A stretch of DNA of 64,000 nucleotides, from NCBI RefSeq assembly GCF_016026235.1, contig NZ_CP065613.1; one strand, 5' to 3'. Numbering within the stretch: position 1 is the first letter of the stretch; each line of letters opens with the position of its first letter. Positions 44,154-48,070 of this stretch are shown in pieces. The notes below the pieces were generated by a model, which ran no database searches, was not told the origin of the DNA, and saw only the letters and a list, made by a program, of their open reading frames with translations. The position numbers were made by a program, and so were the translations under genes. The stretch is from Escherichia coli. Its GTDB lineage: Bacteria > Pseudomonadota > Gammaproteobacteria > Enterobacterales > Enterobacteriaceae.

Positions 44154-45530
44154 ATGAAAATTATCATTCTGGGTGCCGGCCAGGTTGGCGGCACACTGGC
44201 GGAAAACCTGGTTGGCGAGAACAACGATATCACTGTTGTCGATACCAACGGTGAGCGTCTGCGAACCTTGCAGGATAAATTTGACCTGCGAGTCGTGCAG
44301 GGGCATGGCTCTCATCCACGCGTATTGCGGGAGGCAGGTGCCGACGACGCCGATATGCTGGTTGCTGTAACCAGTTCAGATGAAACCAATATGGTTGCCT
44401 GCCAGGTAGCCTACTCACTTTTCAACACCCCTAATCGCATCGCTCGTATCCGCTCACCAGACTACGTACGCGATGCCGATAAGCTATTTCATTCAGATGC
44501 TGTACCGATTGATCATCTGATCGCACCAGAGCAGTTGGTTATCGATAATATTTACCGACTGATTGAGTATCCCGGCGCATTGCAGGTGGTGAACTTCGCT
44601 GAGGGTAAAGTCAGCCTCGCTGTGGTTAAAGCCTATTATGGCGGCCCGCTGATTGGTAATGCACTTTCGACCATGCGCGAACATATGCCACATATCGATA
44701 CTCGTGTGGCAGCAATTTTCCGCCACGATCGCCCCATTCGTCCGCAAGGTTCAACCATTGTTGAGGCTGGTGATGAAGTGTTCTTTATTGCCGCTTCACA
44801 GCATATCCGCGCGGTGATGAGTGAATTACAGCGACTGGAAAAACCGTATAAGCGGATCATGCTGGTTGGTGGCGGTAATATCGGTGCAGGGCTGGCGCGT
44901 CGTCTGGAAAAAGATTACAGCGTTAAACTCATCGAACGTAATCAGCAGCGCGCTGCCGAACTGGCGGAAAAGTTGCAGAATACGATCGTCTTTTTTGGTG
45001 ATGCGTCGGATCAAGAACTGCTGGCCGAAGAACATATCGATCAAGTTGATCTGTTTATTGCCGTCACCAACGATGACGAGGCCAATATCATGTCCGCCAT
45101 GCTTGCCAAACGTATGGGTGCGAAAAAGGTGATGGTATTGATCCAGCGTCGCGCTTATGTGGATCTGGTTCAGGGGAGCGTGATCGATATTGCGATTTCA
45201 CCACAACAAGCAACTATTTCTGCGTTGCTTAGCCATGTGCGAAAAGCAGATATTGTTGGTGTTTCCTCATTGCGCCGCGGCGTAGCAGAAGCTATTGAAG
45301 CCGTTGCTCACGGTGATGAAAGCACCTCACGCGTTGTCGGCAGAGTCATTGACGAAATCAAGCTACCGCCAGGAACGATTATTGGAGCGGTGGTACGTGG
45401 AAACGACGTGATGATTGCCAATGACAATCTGCGCATTGAGCAAGGCGATCACGTAATTATGTTCCTCACAGATAAAAAATTTATTACCGACGTCGAAAGA
45501 CTCTTCCAGCCAAGCCCTTTCTTCTTGTAA
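44154..45530 (+). CDS. trkA: Potassium uptake protein TrkA (tandem NAD-binding domains)
   Basis: 458 aa; [19 protein letters not shown] and a second Rossmann repeat [13 protein letters not shown]. Confidence 0.95.
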
Positions 45531-45534
45531 TTAA

Positions 45535-45562
45535 TAAGGCGTCTAATGACGCCTTATTATTT
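45535..45562 (+). terminator. Intrinsic terminator after trkA
   Basis: taaggcgtctaatgacgcctta hairpin followed by a T-rich tract. Confidence 0.65.
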
Positions 45563-45866
45563 CCCTTTGATTATCAAGGATTAATTAAATTCATTCCTGG
45601 CAGGAAAATGGCTTAACATTTGTTAGACTTATGGTTGTCGGCTTCATAGGGAGAATAACATGAGCATTATTAAAGAATTTCGCGAATTTGCGATGCGCGG
45701 GAACGTGGTGGATTTGGCGGTGGGTGTCATTATCGGTGCGGCATTCGGGAAGATTGTATCTTCACTGGTTGCCGATATCATCATGCCACCTCTGGGCTTA
45801 TTAATTGGCGGGATCGACTTTAAACAGTTTGCTGTCACGCTACGCGATGCGCAGGGGGATATCCCC

Positions 45867-47149
45867 TGAGGGATCCCCAGAAAATTTAGTAAACCATTAT
45901 CATATTGGTATACCGTTGCTGTAGAACTTTCAGCCCTGCGTCAAGTGACAGTGTGTTTAGTATGAGTGGAGAATGTCGAATCACATTCTCCGCCAGTTTT
46001 AATAACGAGATGACTCGCCTGTGCTTCACTGTATTTGCCTGATATTTATGATGTATCCCTTTGTTTTCCAGGCTGAAACCGCTTAACCACATAATGATAC
46101 TGGCTAATGTTGCGATCAGACTCAATACCGTGACCCGCCCAGATGAATGACTGGCACCAAACCGTAGTCCAAATCCCCAGCGAGGATTTTTTTCATCCCT
46201 GAAATTTTGCTCAATTTGCATTCTACGGCTGTATAATTTCATTACCTGTTTTGGCGAGAACTCAGTACTGTTTGTGAAAATAAACCATGGTGATTTCCCG
46301 GCAGTACGAGCTTTAGCCGTCACCGATGGTCTGGTTGCTCTTTCCTTCGAGCGTTTAAATCTACGACCTTTAGGCTTACTTTTATAAAGATAAAAATGCC
46401 CTTCATGTTGTGCATTTTTATCTCGACCCAGCAGGCCTTCACCTAAATAAATTGCTGTCGTTGATGCTTTTGTGCCTGAGTCCGACACCTTTTCCCAGCC
46501 ATTACCAACATTGTAATAATGATTGCCCAGTACCCGGCAAATATAGGTCCAGCCACGGGAGCGGAGCTGTTGGAACCATCGCCCCTGAAAACCGGCATCT
46601 GTAATAACAATGACATCAGTCCCGGGGGAAAAGCACTCAGCAAGCGATTCCAGAAAACGCTCATGTACATCTGCATTCGCTGTCTGTGATGATGGAACGA
46701 CACAACTCATCAACGGTAAAGAACGCCCGTCACATGCCAGGCTTGCCCGCAAAAGCTGAAAACGAGAGGCATGATAAGCACTCCAGTCAATGAGTATCAC
46801 AACACGAGACATTCCCCGCGTAATCTTTTGGGTAATTCGCTGAAAAATGGTGGAAACCTCATTTTGCAAATGTCGATTCCCCAACAGTCGATCCACCCGC
46901 TTTATTTTGTTTTTAACTGATGCCGTACCGGTTAAATGACGCCCGATACTGGTAAGTGTGAGGGAAGCGCCATTTATTACAGCATTAGTTGCGTCAATCA
47001 GTGATTTTTGACGGTAAAGATGCAAAGGGGCCAGTATGTTGTTAAGGAAATTTTGGCATAATGAACGTGCAGGCATAGTGGTGATCTCCTTGAAATTGTT
47101 AGCACAATCAATTAGATCACATCTCACTATGCCTGTCTTGTTTTCTGGG
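45867..47149 (-). mobile_element. IS4-family (IS10-like) insertion sequence, about 1283 bp, with terminal inverted repeats and a 9-10 bp target-site duplication
   Basis: Left end CTGAGGGATCCCCAGAAAA versus reverse complement of right end CTGAGGAATCCCCAGAAAA (18/19 match); flanking direct repeat GGGATATCCC at 45857-45866 and 47150-47159; single transposase ORF inside. Confidence 0.88.
45886..47076 (-). CDS. IS4-family DDE transposase
   Basis: 396 aa from [10 protein letters not shown] with [25 protein letters not shown] and [15 protein letters not shown] (Y-2-R-3-E-6-K) motifs resembling the IS10 transposase but clearly diverged. Confidence 0.88.
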
Positions 47150-47370
47150 GATTCCTCAGGGGATATCCCTGCTGTTGTGATGCATTACGGTGTCTTCATT
47201 CAAAACGTCTTTGATTTTCTGATTGTGGCCTTTGCCATCTTTATGGCGATTAAGCTAATCAACAAACTGAATCGGAAAAAAGAAGAACCAGCAGCCGCAC
47301 CAGCACCAACTAAAGAAGAAGTATTACTGACAGAAATTCGTGATTTGCTGAAAGAGCAGAATAACCGCTC

Positions 47371-47589
47371 TTAACAAGCGCCTGAAAGCAGAAGACCAGT
47401 GGTAAAAAAGTGATTTACTTTCTTGCCACTGGCCTCCCAGTTCCCCCGATTGCCATGTTTTCCTTTTCGCATGTAACTACCTTTCCCTTTCTTATTTTTC
47501 TCTACGCGCTGTCGGAATAAGGGATCATGTAGTAATGCTTCTATCGCATTATCCTTTATCTGCCCTTTAGTATGCTGATATCGGCTCAT
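47371..47589 (-). CDS. arfA: Alternative ribosome-rescue factor A (YhdL)
   Basis: 72 aa [72 protein letters not shown]; 3' end overlaps the mscL stop. Confidence 0.92.
47384..47424 (-). promoter_or_regulatory. Stem-loop in the 3' part of the arfA ORF (candidate RNase III processing hairpin)
   Basis: Inverted repeat ccagtgg ... ccactgg flanking an A/T-rich loop inside the last ~15 codons; arfA mRNA is known to be processed to a non-stop transcript. Confidence 0.45.
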
Positions 47590-47644
47590 AAAAACTCCAG
47601 TTGGTTATTTAACGGCGCGAGTGTAATCCTGCCAGTGCAAAAAA

Positions 47645-48070
47645 TCAACAGCCACTCTTAACGCCACTCGCCCCTTGTTCAAGAGCTTCAAGAATCGAAC
47701 AATAAACACTGCTATGAGCAGTCCCACAACAGGCATCGTTAAGGCGTTGCAAGGAACGCTGCATACTCTGCAACTCGGCTATCCGTGCTTCGACTTCCTG
47801 CAATCTTTCCTGCACAATGCCTTTTGACTCCTGACAGGTATGGTGTTCAGGATCGATGCGGATCGACAGCAACTCGCGGATCGACTCCAGACTGAAACCT
47901 AGTTGTCTGGCATGGCGGATAAATTTCAATCGCTGGAGATCGCTTTCGGTATACAGGCGAAACCCACCTTCGGTACGCACTTCATGCTCCATCATCTGCT
48001 GCTTTTCGTAATAACGAATCGTGTCGGGTGTTACTTCCGCCATTTTTGCCAGCTCACCAATGCGATACAT
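47645..48070 (-). CDS. zntR: MerR-family Zn(II)-responsive regulator ZntR
   Basis: 141 aa from MYRIGELAKMAEVTPDTIRYYEKQQMM; C-terminal Cys/His metal site. Confidence 0.93.
   Translation of the reverse strand: MYRIGELAKMAEVTPDTIRYYEKQQMMEHEVRTEGGFRLYTESDLQRLKFIRHARQLGFSLESIRELLSIRIDPEHHTCQESKGIVQERLQEVEARIAELQSMQRSLQRLNDACCGTAHSSVYCSILEALEQGASGVKSGC

Follow-up and report, generated by a model that had tools for sequence, protein, structure and literature searches.

The window, a 64,000-nt stretch of Escherichia coli DNA, carries a 1294-bp insertion sequence, ISEc60 (45866..47159, - strand), that splits mscL at about codon 69 next to an intact arfA. The mscL 5' fragment (45660..45869, + strand), present in the ORF list and annotated in RefSeq as a pseudogene, encodes MscL residues 1-69, matching positions 1-69 of the NCBIfam MscL profile, and ends at a TGA supplied by the IS end. 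The 3' fragment (47160..47374, + strand), which is also annotated in RefSeq and matches profile positions 41-137, encodes residues ~66-136 and is severed from its promoter. On the opposite strand, arfA (47371..47589, - strand) encodes 72 aa (Pfam PF03889, 89.5 bits; RefSeq WP_000092696.1). An earlier note on this DNA had described mscL and arfA as convergent with overlapping stops and placed the IS end about 220 bp from the arfA 3' end; both statements hold, the stop codons sharing TTAA at 47371-47374 and the distance to the arfA stop codon measuring 211 bp (47160-47370).

The 3' stem-loop of arfA, which is cleaved by RNase III (PMC10070815) to yield a non-stop mRNA (PMC10070815, PMC3581467), is likewise intact. 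Its predicted minimum free energy is -37 kcal/mol for 47366-47460 (z = -4.4), with a core stem at 47390..47439 (- strand) that covers arfA codons ~51-67, ahead of the stop codon. The presence of both an ArfA domain and a stem-loop in the 3' coding sequence fits an ArfA with an RNase III-processed hairpin. In the literature the stem-loop is given as arfA nt 146-206 (PMC10070815), which corresponds to 47384-47444 in the window; the interval given earlier, 47384..47424, had the correct left edge and ended 15-20 nt short.

The inserted element is 99.9% identical over 1294-1295 bp to RefSeq features named 'IS4-like element ISEc60 family transposase'. Its transposase of 396 aa (45886..47076, - strand), found in the ORF list and as the same CDS in the RefSeq annotation of two genomes, matches NF033591 with 360.3 bits (cut-off 152) and PF01609 (DDE_Tnp_1) with 74 bits, and is collinear from residue 8 with the IS10 transposase at 35% amino-acid identity. 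The transposase ATG lies at 47076, the start of the interval considered in the earlier note, with GGAGAT just upstream. The IS10-like terminal inverted repeats are 19 nt each with one mismatch, CTGAGGGATCCCCAGAAAA at the transposase-distal end (45866..45884, + strand) and CTGAGGAATCCCCAGAAAA at the transposase-proximal end (47141..47159, - strand); the latter end points rightward, to the mscL 3' fragment and arfA. Comparison of the flanks identified a 10-bp target-site duplication, GGGATATCCC, at 45856..45865 and 47160..47169. The DDE transposase, the repeats together with the duplication, and the near-identity to named copies all assign the element to the IS10-like group of the IS4 family. 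It is a true IS insertion, already annotated in RefSeq, and not a chance pattern.

An ORF of 112 aa (47036-47374) joins IS sequence in frame to the MscL C-terminus. We treated it as a chance reading frame, since its ATG lies upstream of the outward transcription start predicted below; the next in-frame ATG (47129) lies inside a hairpin and has no SD sequence.

Target choice and recurrence of the insertion

Comparison of 13 copies revealed that ISEc60 prefers the target GGG-N4-5-CCC and duplicates 10 bp at mscL and 10-11 bp in the 12 other copies, unlike IS10, which duplicates 9 bp at GCTNAGC (PMC2744996). The mscL site GGGATATCCC is a perfect match to this palindromic consensus, and the insertion is an ordinary ISEc60 transposition into a preferred target within mscL, a routine gene disruption.

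The same insertion is found in 2 of 5426 complete E. coli genomes, FDAARGOS_943, which carries it at 99.9% identity, and 2023CK-01509. The ISEc60 copies at mscL in these two genomes are separated by 15 differing sites (by 14, when 2023CK-01509 is compared with the copy in the window), each is identical to the other copies in its own genome, and the flanks of the insertion in 2023CK-01509 differ from those in the window by 1.2% and 0.4%. The mscL::ISEc60 insertion thus arose independently in two E. coli lineages, at the same mscL base and in the same orientation. The exact IS/mscL junction had no match in 100,044 GTDB species-representative genomes, and a literature search covering ISEc60, ISSfl1 antisense RNAs and IS insertions in mscL returned nothing relevant.

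The recurrent mscL knockouts can be attributed to the strong GGG-N4-5-CCC preference of the element. We also considered that selection, either for the loss of MscL or for changed control of arfA, contributed beyond target preference alone. Such selection would be consistent with two independent events of identical base and orientation when the ISEc60 right end is present in only 11 complete genomes, and with the implication of MscL in streptomycin uptake, as cited in PMC10070815. We nevertheless regard it as very improbable: the perfect fit of the mscL site to the target consensus is enough by itself, and the insertion is confined to those two complete genomes and to none of the GTDB species representatives.

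Candidate control signals at the transposase-proximal end

The end of ISEc60 facing arfA folds into a 68-nt hairpin (47069..47136, + strand) that spans the SD sequence and ATG of the transposase and corresponds to what in IS10 is the RNA-OUT stem-loop and fold-back structure. The predicted minimum free energy on the + strand is -43.6 kcal/mol for 47060-47165 (z = -6.4), and across 22 relatives 97.1% of the cells are paired, with 13 double-change cells compared to 5.8 in shuffles. At the level of structure, this would correspond to the stable stem-loop of IS10-type control, which lies antisense to the transposase mRNA at its 5' end. Directly after the hairpin and still inside the IS lies a T-rich tract, TCTTGTTTTCT (47137..47147, + strand), whose T-richness is kept in the 22 relatives while the interspersed bases vary; it could serve as the terminator tail of an outward RNA or as an A-tract upstream of the -35 of an inward promoter. 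The Rfam RNA-OUT model RF00240 (threshold 41 bits) gave no match at E<=10 within 45500-47900 of the window, where no other Rfam family matched either, and none at E<=1 in ISEc60 or ISSfl1; the IS10 positive control scored 96.6 bits.

A position-weight scan, which as a control recovered the IS10 inward promoter (pIN) at its known start, nt 81, placed its best site in the IS end region on the - strand at 47111..47139 (score 9.6; scores of at least 9 occur 0.6 times per kb). This candidate pIN comprises a -35 AAGACA (47139-47134), a 17-nt spacer and TGA-TCTAAT, with the -10 at 47116-47111, and has a predicted start at ~47104. Written as AAGACA-17-TGATCTAAT, it has the same form as the IS10 pIN, TGGATA-17-TGATCAAAT; the Dam site GATC (47115-47118) falls within the -10 and aligns with the GATC of IS10, and both GACA and GATC are invariant in the 22 relatives. 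As far as sequence can tell, ISEc60 would have an inward promoter of the IS10 type that carries a Dam GATC within the -10 and initiates in the stem-loop.

For the outward direction, the motif itself, alignment with IS10 and codon conservation point to a candidate pOUT at 47054..47062 (+ strand), consisting of an extended -10, TGGCATAAT, with no recognisable -35 and a predicted start at ~47069-47070. It is the sole TGn followed by a hexamer with at least 4/6 matches on the + strand of 46800-47450 (650 nt), such motifs numbering 16 in 128 kb, and its -10 aligns, 1 nt off relative to the ATG, with the IS10 pOUT -10 TAAAAT. The third base of transposase codons 5 and 6, which underlie this -10, is A in all 22 relatives, although the codons specify 7 and 4 different amino acids, respectively. 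Alternatively, these A's may be kept for Hfq binding or for the initiation of translation on the transposase mRNA. The candidate has a C at -12 and a position-weight score of 5.3, a background value expected ~22 times per kb by chance, but the scan cannot decide on this site, because it omits the IS10 pOUT -10 from its top six outward-strand sites of IS10. A consensus promoter scan, too strict for promoters without a -35, listed nothing on the + strand close to the right end of the IS. A hybrid promoter formed by the IS/mscL junction was rejected, as the top-scoring candidate, TCCTCA-17-TGTGAT, reached 5.98, which is background. We infer that the ISEc60 end facing arfA has a putative weak, -35-less outward promoter at the position of the IS10 pOUT. 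The pOUT-like promoter suggested earlier for this end is thus matched by a candidate in the homologous position, and qualified by the missing -35 and the background score.

After a shift of ~25 nt, the control elements of ISEc60 and IS10 match one by one: in IS10, the -35 lies at 46-51, the pIN start at 81, the ATG at 108 and the pOUT start at 115, and in ISEc60, counted from the IS end, these lie at 21-26, ~56, 84 and ~90. The two elements share (i) a DDE transposase of the same IS4 subgroup and CTGA..ATCCCC terminal repeats, (ii) a pIN, a candidate one in ISEc60, built as -35/17/TGATC(A/T)AAT, whose -10 contains GATC, (iii) a stem-loop of ~68-70 nt around the SD sequence and ATG, (iv) a -10 in the outward orientation, a candidate in ISEc60, that lies +14 to +19 from the ATG there and +15 to +20 in IS10, and (v) a predicted RNA-IN/RNA-OUT overlap of 35 nt. 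On the other hand, ISEc60 lacks the ~25-nt segment between terminal repeat and hairpin, has a T-tract immediately after the hairpin and an extended -10 (TGnCATAAT) in place of TAAAAT, and its hairpin escapes RF00240; the promoters and RNAs of ISEc60 are predicted ones. The IS10 analogy drawn in the earlier note is supported by the collinear transposase, the IS10-like repeats and the features found where IS10 has its pIN, Dam site, RNA-OUT stem-loop and pOUT, and the arfA-facing end is best read as a putative IS10-type transposase control cassette.

These observations can also be read without a functional outward promoter, the inverted repeat then acting either on the transposase-sense strand only, by a fold-back that hides the SD sequence and ATG of transcripts arriving from outside, or as DNA, with the IS being a polar mscL knockout. 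On the minus strand, too, the predicted fold is highly stable (-38.3 kcal/mol, z = -5.9), transcripts reading through from arfA would run into the IS in the same sense as the transposase, and the pOUT candidate's weakness and the absent Rfam RNA-OUT match agree with this reading. The conservation pattern argues the other way, since 44 G-U cells fit the outward strand only and 7 the other strand only, and 97% of cells are paired on the outward strand versus 89% on the other; the third-codon A's under the -10 stay unchanged where the amino acids vary, the register fits that of the IS10 pOUT, and the predicted overlap equals that of IS10. We consider the absence of an outward promoter doubtful, yet a serious alternative to the IS10-type cassette with its candidate pOUT.

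The mscL-arfA antisense pair and possible read-out from the element

In wild-type E. coli, mscL and arfA down-regulate each other post-transcriptionally (Morra et al. 2023, PMC10070815), and the pair is listed as an excludon in PMC12288877. The mscL 3' UTR (+1 to +64), which maps to 47375..47438 (+ strand), is complementary to the arfA 3' coding sequence, and deletion of mscL raises arfA RNA 2.6-fold at high osmolality (764 mOsm) (PMC10070815). These published data support the relevance of mscL-side transcription to arfA. They also show that antisense transcription over the arfA hairpin is already the wild-type state and no novelty of the IS, since the mscL 3' UTR overlaps arfA.

The product of the candidate pOUT is likely a short transposase antisense RNA, because the conserved T-tract directly follows the hairpin. 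The outward transcript would mainly be a hairpin RNA of ~70-80 nt that lies antisense to the transposase mRNA over its initial ~35 nt and ends at or near the T-tract, still within the IS; likewise, IS10 RNA-OUT ends at nt 47, inside IS10 (PMC5006887). On the other strand, the same hairpin would sequester the transposase SD sequence and ATG in transcripts entering from the arfA side. Read-out past the hairpin could be larger than assumed, because the hairpin and T-tract fail the classical terminator score (d-score = -35, below pass), a score that is uninformative here as it is also negative for the trkA terminator, the arfA hairpin and IS10 RNA-OUT.

In its full form, the earlier proposal was that efficient read-out from a pOUT-like promoter produces antisense RNA across the arfA 3' coding sequence and hairpin, altering arfA mRNA processing or the level of ArfA. 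Several observations are compatible with it: the candidate sits at the IS10-homologous position, no canonical terminator is recognised by d-score in the hairpin and T-tract, the + strand from 47160 up to the arfA hairpin shows no predicted terminator-like site, the C/G skew across 47137-47436 gives no clear signal, with no marked C-over-G bias suggesting a Rho site, and mscL-side transcription lowers arfA RNA (PMC10070815). Moreover, IS10 pOUT activates adjacent genes, such as otsBA in rpoS-null E. coli (PMC2744996), where, as here, an IS10-type element lies next to a host gene region with its transposase-proximal end facing outward. In that case, however, a sense transcript reads into a gene starting ~50 nt away and was selected for, whereas at mscL any read-out would run antisense to arfA from a start ~300 nt away, and there is no sign of selection. 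We consider efficient read-out unlikely, given that (i) the candidate promoter is weak on paper; (ii) the conserved T-tract follows the hairpin; (iii) ~300 nt of untranslated RNA separate the predicted start from arfA; (iv) the arfA promoter reportedly exceeds even the native mscL promoter 4-10-fold in strength (PMC10070815); and (v) antisense pairing would yield arfA mRNA that is cut by RNase III and lacks a stop codon, just like the normal product.

In our preferred account, with the short antisense RNA confined to the element, the chief consequence for arfA would lie on the side of mscL. The arfA hairpin and mscL 3' UTR are the same as in the wild-type locus (PMC10070815) and the mscL/arfA overlap is intact, but the IS separates the mscL promoter and first 69 codons from the 3' UTR, the promoter now being 1.3 kb further off, across ISEc60. 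The mscL promoter is controlled by sigma-S and osmolality; 1294 bp of IS sequence, which would go untranslated, now part it from the 3' UTR, and we assume that the IS is polar on transcription from that promoter. The only + strand terminator-like site within ISEc60 lies at 45966-45993, in coding sequence, where the stem is conserved and the T-run is found in ISEc60 alone. The mscL arm of the antisense pair is probably silent here, or driven only by IS-derived transcription. The chief expected effect would be the loss of mscL-dependent arfA down-regulation at high osmolality, which any pOUT read-through would replace only partly and constitutively; a loss of regulated antisense on arfA thus appears more probable than a gain. 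Taken together, ordinary ISEc60 transposition, an IS10-type control cassette and lost mscL-dependent repression of arfA form the best explanation of the locus, one we hold to be reasonably probable. IS activity has also remodelled the trkA-mscL-arfA-zntR interval elsewhere in the E. coli/Shigella group; in Shigella flexneri, arfA itself is gone, making tmRNA essential (PMC3581467), whereas here arfA is intact and mscL alone is disrupted.

To conclude, the mscL-arfA pair ties the osmotic-stress response to ribosome rescue. Were ISEc60 pOUT read-through to work, the mscL antisense, regulated by sigma-S and osmolality, would give way to one that is constitutive and driven by the IS across the arfA hairpin, rewiring back-up ribosome rescue where the mscL palindrome is repeatedly hit; we think this improbable, but if true, the locus would be a naturally occurring example in which a mobile element has captured one arm of the mscL-arfA antisense pair. 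More broadly, the IS10 layout of pIN, pOUT and antisense hairpin appears to be conserved in a wider IS4-family group, comprising ISEc60, ISSfl1 and unnamed relatives, that is missed by the Rfam RNA-OUT model.

Insertion of ISEc60 at mscL and its recurrence

In the E. coli gene order trkA-mscL-arfA-zntR-yhdN-rplQ, mscL (start 45660) is split after codon ~69 by ISEc60 (45866-47159, 1294 bp), which has 19-nt terminal inverted repeats with one mismatch and is bounded by a 10-bp direct target-site duplication, GGGATATCCC (45856-65 and 47160-69). Its single gene (45886-47076, minus strand) encodes a 396-aa transposase matching the IS4-family model NF033591 (360 bits) and Pfam DDE_Tnp_1, and the element is 99.9% identical to RefSeq copies named 'IS4-like element ISEc60 family transposase'. 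Since the transposase ATG (47076, preceded by GGAGAT) lies 84 nt from the right IS end, this transposase-proximal end faces the 215-bp mscL 3' fragment (47160-47374) and arfA (47371-47589, minus strand; Pfam ArfA, 89.5 bits). The earlier note's placement of the IS about 220 bp from the arfA 3' end agrees with a gap to the arfA stop of 211 bp, and the overlap that it described is real, both stop codons sharing TTAA. The arfA hairpin that it proposed (47384..47424) is present but slightly short at one edge compared with our fold (47390-47439, extended helix to 47372-47455) and with the published stem-loop, arfA nt 146-206, which maps to 47384-47444 (PMC10070815). An ORF of 112 aa (47036-47374, + strand) begins within the IS and continues in frame into MscL residues ~66-136, with a second in-frame ATG (47129), lacking an SD sequence, in the 3' arm of the IS-end hairpin; these about 40 open codons probably arose by chance.

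Among 5426 complete E. coli genomes, FDAARGOS_943 and 2023CK-01509 are the two that carry ISEc60 at the same base and in the same orientation; the mscL/ISEc60 junction was absent from all species-representative genomes searched. In an 8.1-kb comparison with the window, FDAARGOS_943 shows 3 differences (43317, 46141 and 47479) and 2023CK-01509 shows 68, of which 40 fall in the flank left of the IS, 14 within the IS itself and 14 in the flank to its right. Position 47479, a synonymous site in arfA codon 37, is A in the window and G in both carriers. Two independent insertions, and not one inherited or transferred allele, are indicated by several lines of sequence comparison: (i) the FDAARGOS_943-type and 2023CK-01509-type elements differ at 15 sites; (ii) each mscL copy is identical to copies elsewhere, that of FDAARGOS_943 to those on EIEC plasmids and chromosomes and that of 2023CK-01509 to its other chromosomal copy, adjoining ampH; and (iii) the flanks of the two carriers differ as near as 50-110 bp from the IS. 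ISEc60 has a strong target preference: 13 copies are flanked by duplications of 10-11 bp that follow GGG-(A/T-rich, 4-5 nt)-CCC, in many cases set within GC-GGGG...CCCC-GC, as seen in the window and at retrieved loci L002, L003 and L011-L021. GGGATATCCC also adjoins an 82%-identical relative, of the 89 right ends collected, about half run on into a flank starting with at least GGG, and mscL codons 66-69 (GGG GAT ATC CCT) are a perfect palindromic match to the target form. Recurrence at mscL appears to be explained by target choice, and the insertion is an ordinary, already annotated gene disruption at a preferred target.

An IS10-like arrangement at the transposase-proximal end

The ISEc60 and IS10 transposases are 35% identical, in register from residue 8. 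An alignment of transposase-proximal ends covered ISEc60, IS10, ISSfl1, two decayed relatives (85% and 82% identical) and several unnamed ones; IS10 showed ~25 extra nt between terminal repeat and stem-loop and otherwise aligned throughout. A simple position-weight scan, which put the IS10 inward promoter pIN (TGGATA-17-TGA-TCAAAT) at its known start (nt 81), gave AAGACA-17-TGA-TCTAAT as by far the top site in ISEc60 (score 9.6; scores of at least 9 occur 0.6/kb). This candidate pIN has a predicted start near 47104 and, like its IS10 counterpart, a GATC overlapping the -10. Two GATC (Dam) sites lie symmetrically in opposite hairpin arms: that at 47115-47118 overlaps the candidate pIN -10, and that at 47082-47085 overlaps the transposase SD (GGAGATC). 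Their near-invariance in 22 relatives suggests an IS10-like methylation control.

The 68-nt hairpin (47069-47136) encloses the transposase SD and ATG, and the fold of 47060-47165 reaches -43.6 kcal/mol (z = -6.4). Pairing is kept in 97.1% of cells across 22 distinct relatives and falls to 43% or less when partners are slid; compensatory double changes occur in 13 cells versus 5.8 ± 1.6 after shuffling (0/500 shuffles as high). The outward RNA is pointed to as the selected structure by its G-U pairs (44 cells valid in that strand only, 7 in the transposase-sense strand only) and by its pairing (97% versus 89%). Because the Rfam RNA-OUT model finds IS10 (control, 96.6 bits) yet matches neither ISEc60 nor ISSfl1, the hairpin is an architectural counterpart of RNA-OUT that falls outside the Rfam family. 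The minus-strand version folds at -38.3 kcal/mol (z = -5.9). Fold-back inhibition in IS10 involves a hairpin that hides the SD and ATG; read-through from the arfA promoter would enter ISEc60 in the transposase sense, and the minus-strand hairpin would then hide both elements.

An extended -10, TGGCATAAT (47054-47062), directly precedes the hairpin on the outward (+) strand and is the only motif of its type within 650 nt (16 comparable motifs in 128 kb). This candidate pOUT resembles that of IS10 in the position of its -10 relative to the ATG (+14 to +19, against +15 to +20 for TAAAAT in IS10), in a predicted start (47069-47070, ~7-8 nt downstream of the -10) at the hairpin's first base, and in a predicted overlap with RNA-IN of 35 nt, equal to that of IS10 (81-115). 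Its -7T and -10T complement the third bases of transposase codons 5 and 6, which are A in 22/22 relatives; the encoded residues are S, L, K, Q, T, R or E at codon 5 and L, V, I or A at codon 6, and the third bases of codons 3, 4 and 7-11 are freely variable. Nucleotide-level constraint appears to fall exactly where a -10 element needs it; alternatively, the role of these A's could lie in the transposase mRNA, e.g., in initiation or Hfq binding. The candidate pOUT has no -35, carries C at -12, scores at background level (5.3) and was not among the sites listed by a consensus promoter scan. On balance, we consider a functional outward promoter in ISEc60 fairly probable. The suggestion of a pOUT-like promoter antisense to arfA thus finds partial support: a credible counterpart sits at the guessed place in what appears to be an IS10-type control cassette, its product being most likely a short transposase antisense RNA.

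Possible outward transcription and the probable consequences for arfA

A T-tract, TCTTGTTTTCT (47137-47147), directly follows the hairpin, 12 nt inside the IS; T-richness is held in 22/22 relatives and the bases between vary, which fits a terminator tail for the outward RNA. The IS10 RNA-OUT ends at nt 47, just beyond its stem (PMC5006887). This conservation is ambiguous, since the opposite strand contains here the invariant GACA of the pIN -35 with an A-tract upstream of it. The classical terminator score of hairpin plus T-tract is negative, less so than for IS10 RNA-OUT. The IS10 pOUT reads out of the element, switching on neighbouring genes (PMC2744996), and the stretch between the IS and the arfA/mscL hairpin showed neither a predicted + strand terminator nor a clear Rho-type composition. 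Some read-out from ISEc60 may occur; a measurable effect of it on arfA seems very unlikely.

In distant relatives (~50% amino-acid identity; L006, L008, L022, L028, L031, L037 and L043), a 14-nt insert, CACCCGC(C/T)CATTA, sits between T-tract and terminal repeat, next to flanks such as AAAAAACCCGCC... that each resemble one half of an intrinsic terminator; pairing between insert and flank (GGCGGG plus T-run) could rebuild a terminator on the outward strand. Isolated right-end remnants (hairpin, T-tract and terminal repeat) occur on many F-type plasmids directly upstream of tsh and traT, as at L010 (301-408, 66 bp upstream of tsh) and L007 (301-583, overlapping the traT start region), and their outward-facing end may possibly contribute to expression of these genes.

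The arfA 3' end is normally covered by antisense transcription: the mscL 3' UTR (+1 to +64; here 47375-47438) is complementary to the arfA 3' CDS (PMC10070815), and the two genes also appear as a pair in a list of excludons (PMC12288877). The arfA fragment freed by RNase III reduces mscL mRNA, and mscL deletion raises arfA RNA 2.6-fold at 764 mOsm with arfA promoter activity unchanged; the constitutive promoter of arfA is 4-10 times stronger than that of mscL, which is sigma-S and osmolality dependent (PMC10070815). Because this antisense is normal and mscL deletion raises arfA RNA, the removal of mscL read-through, a side remark in the earlier note, is probably the more important consequence, and the effect on arfA is probably a loss of regulated antisense, not a gain. 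Transcripts from the mscL promoter would have to traverse 1294 nt that are untranslated and run antisense to the transposase gene, and would face a terminator-like hairpin, GGAGAATGT...ACATTCTCC (45966-45993, + strand), about 100 nt inside the transposase-distal end; this hairpin is kept family-wide within coding sequence, its T-run CAGTTTTAAT being found only in ISEc60. IS-driven remodelling of this locus has a precedent in S. flexneri, in which arfA was lost beside an IS and tmRNA became essential (PMC3581467). These results document the target preference of ISEc60 and would extend the regulatory layout known from IS10 to elements of the ISEc60 and ISSfl1 type.
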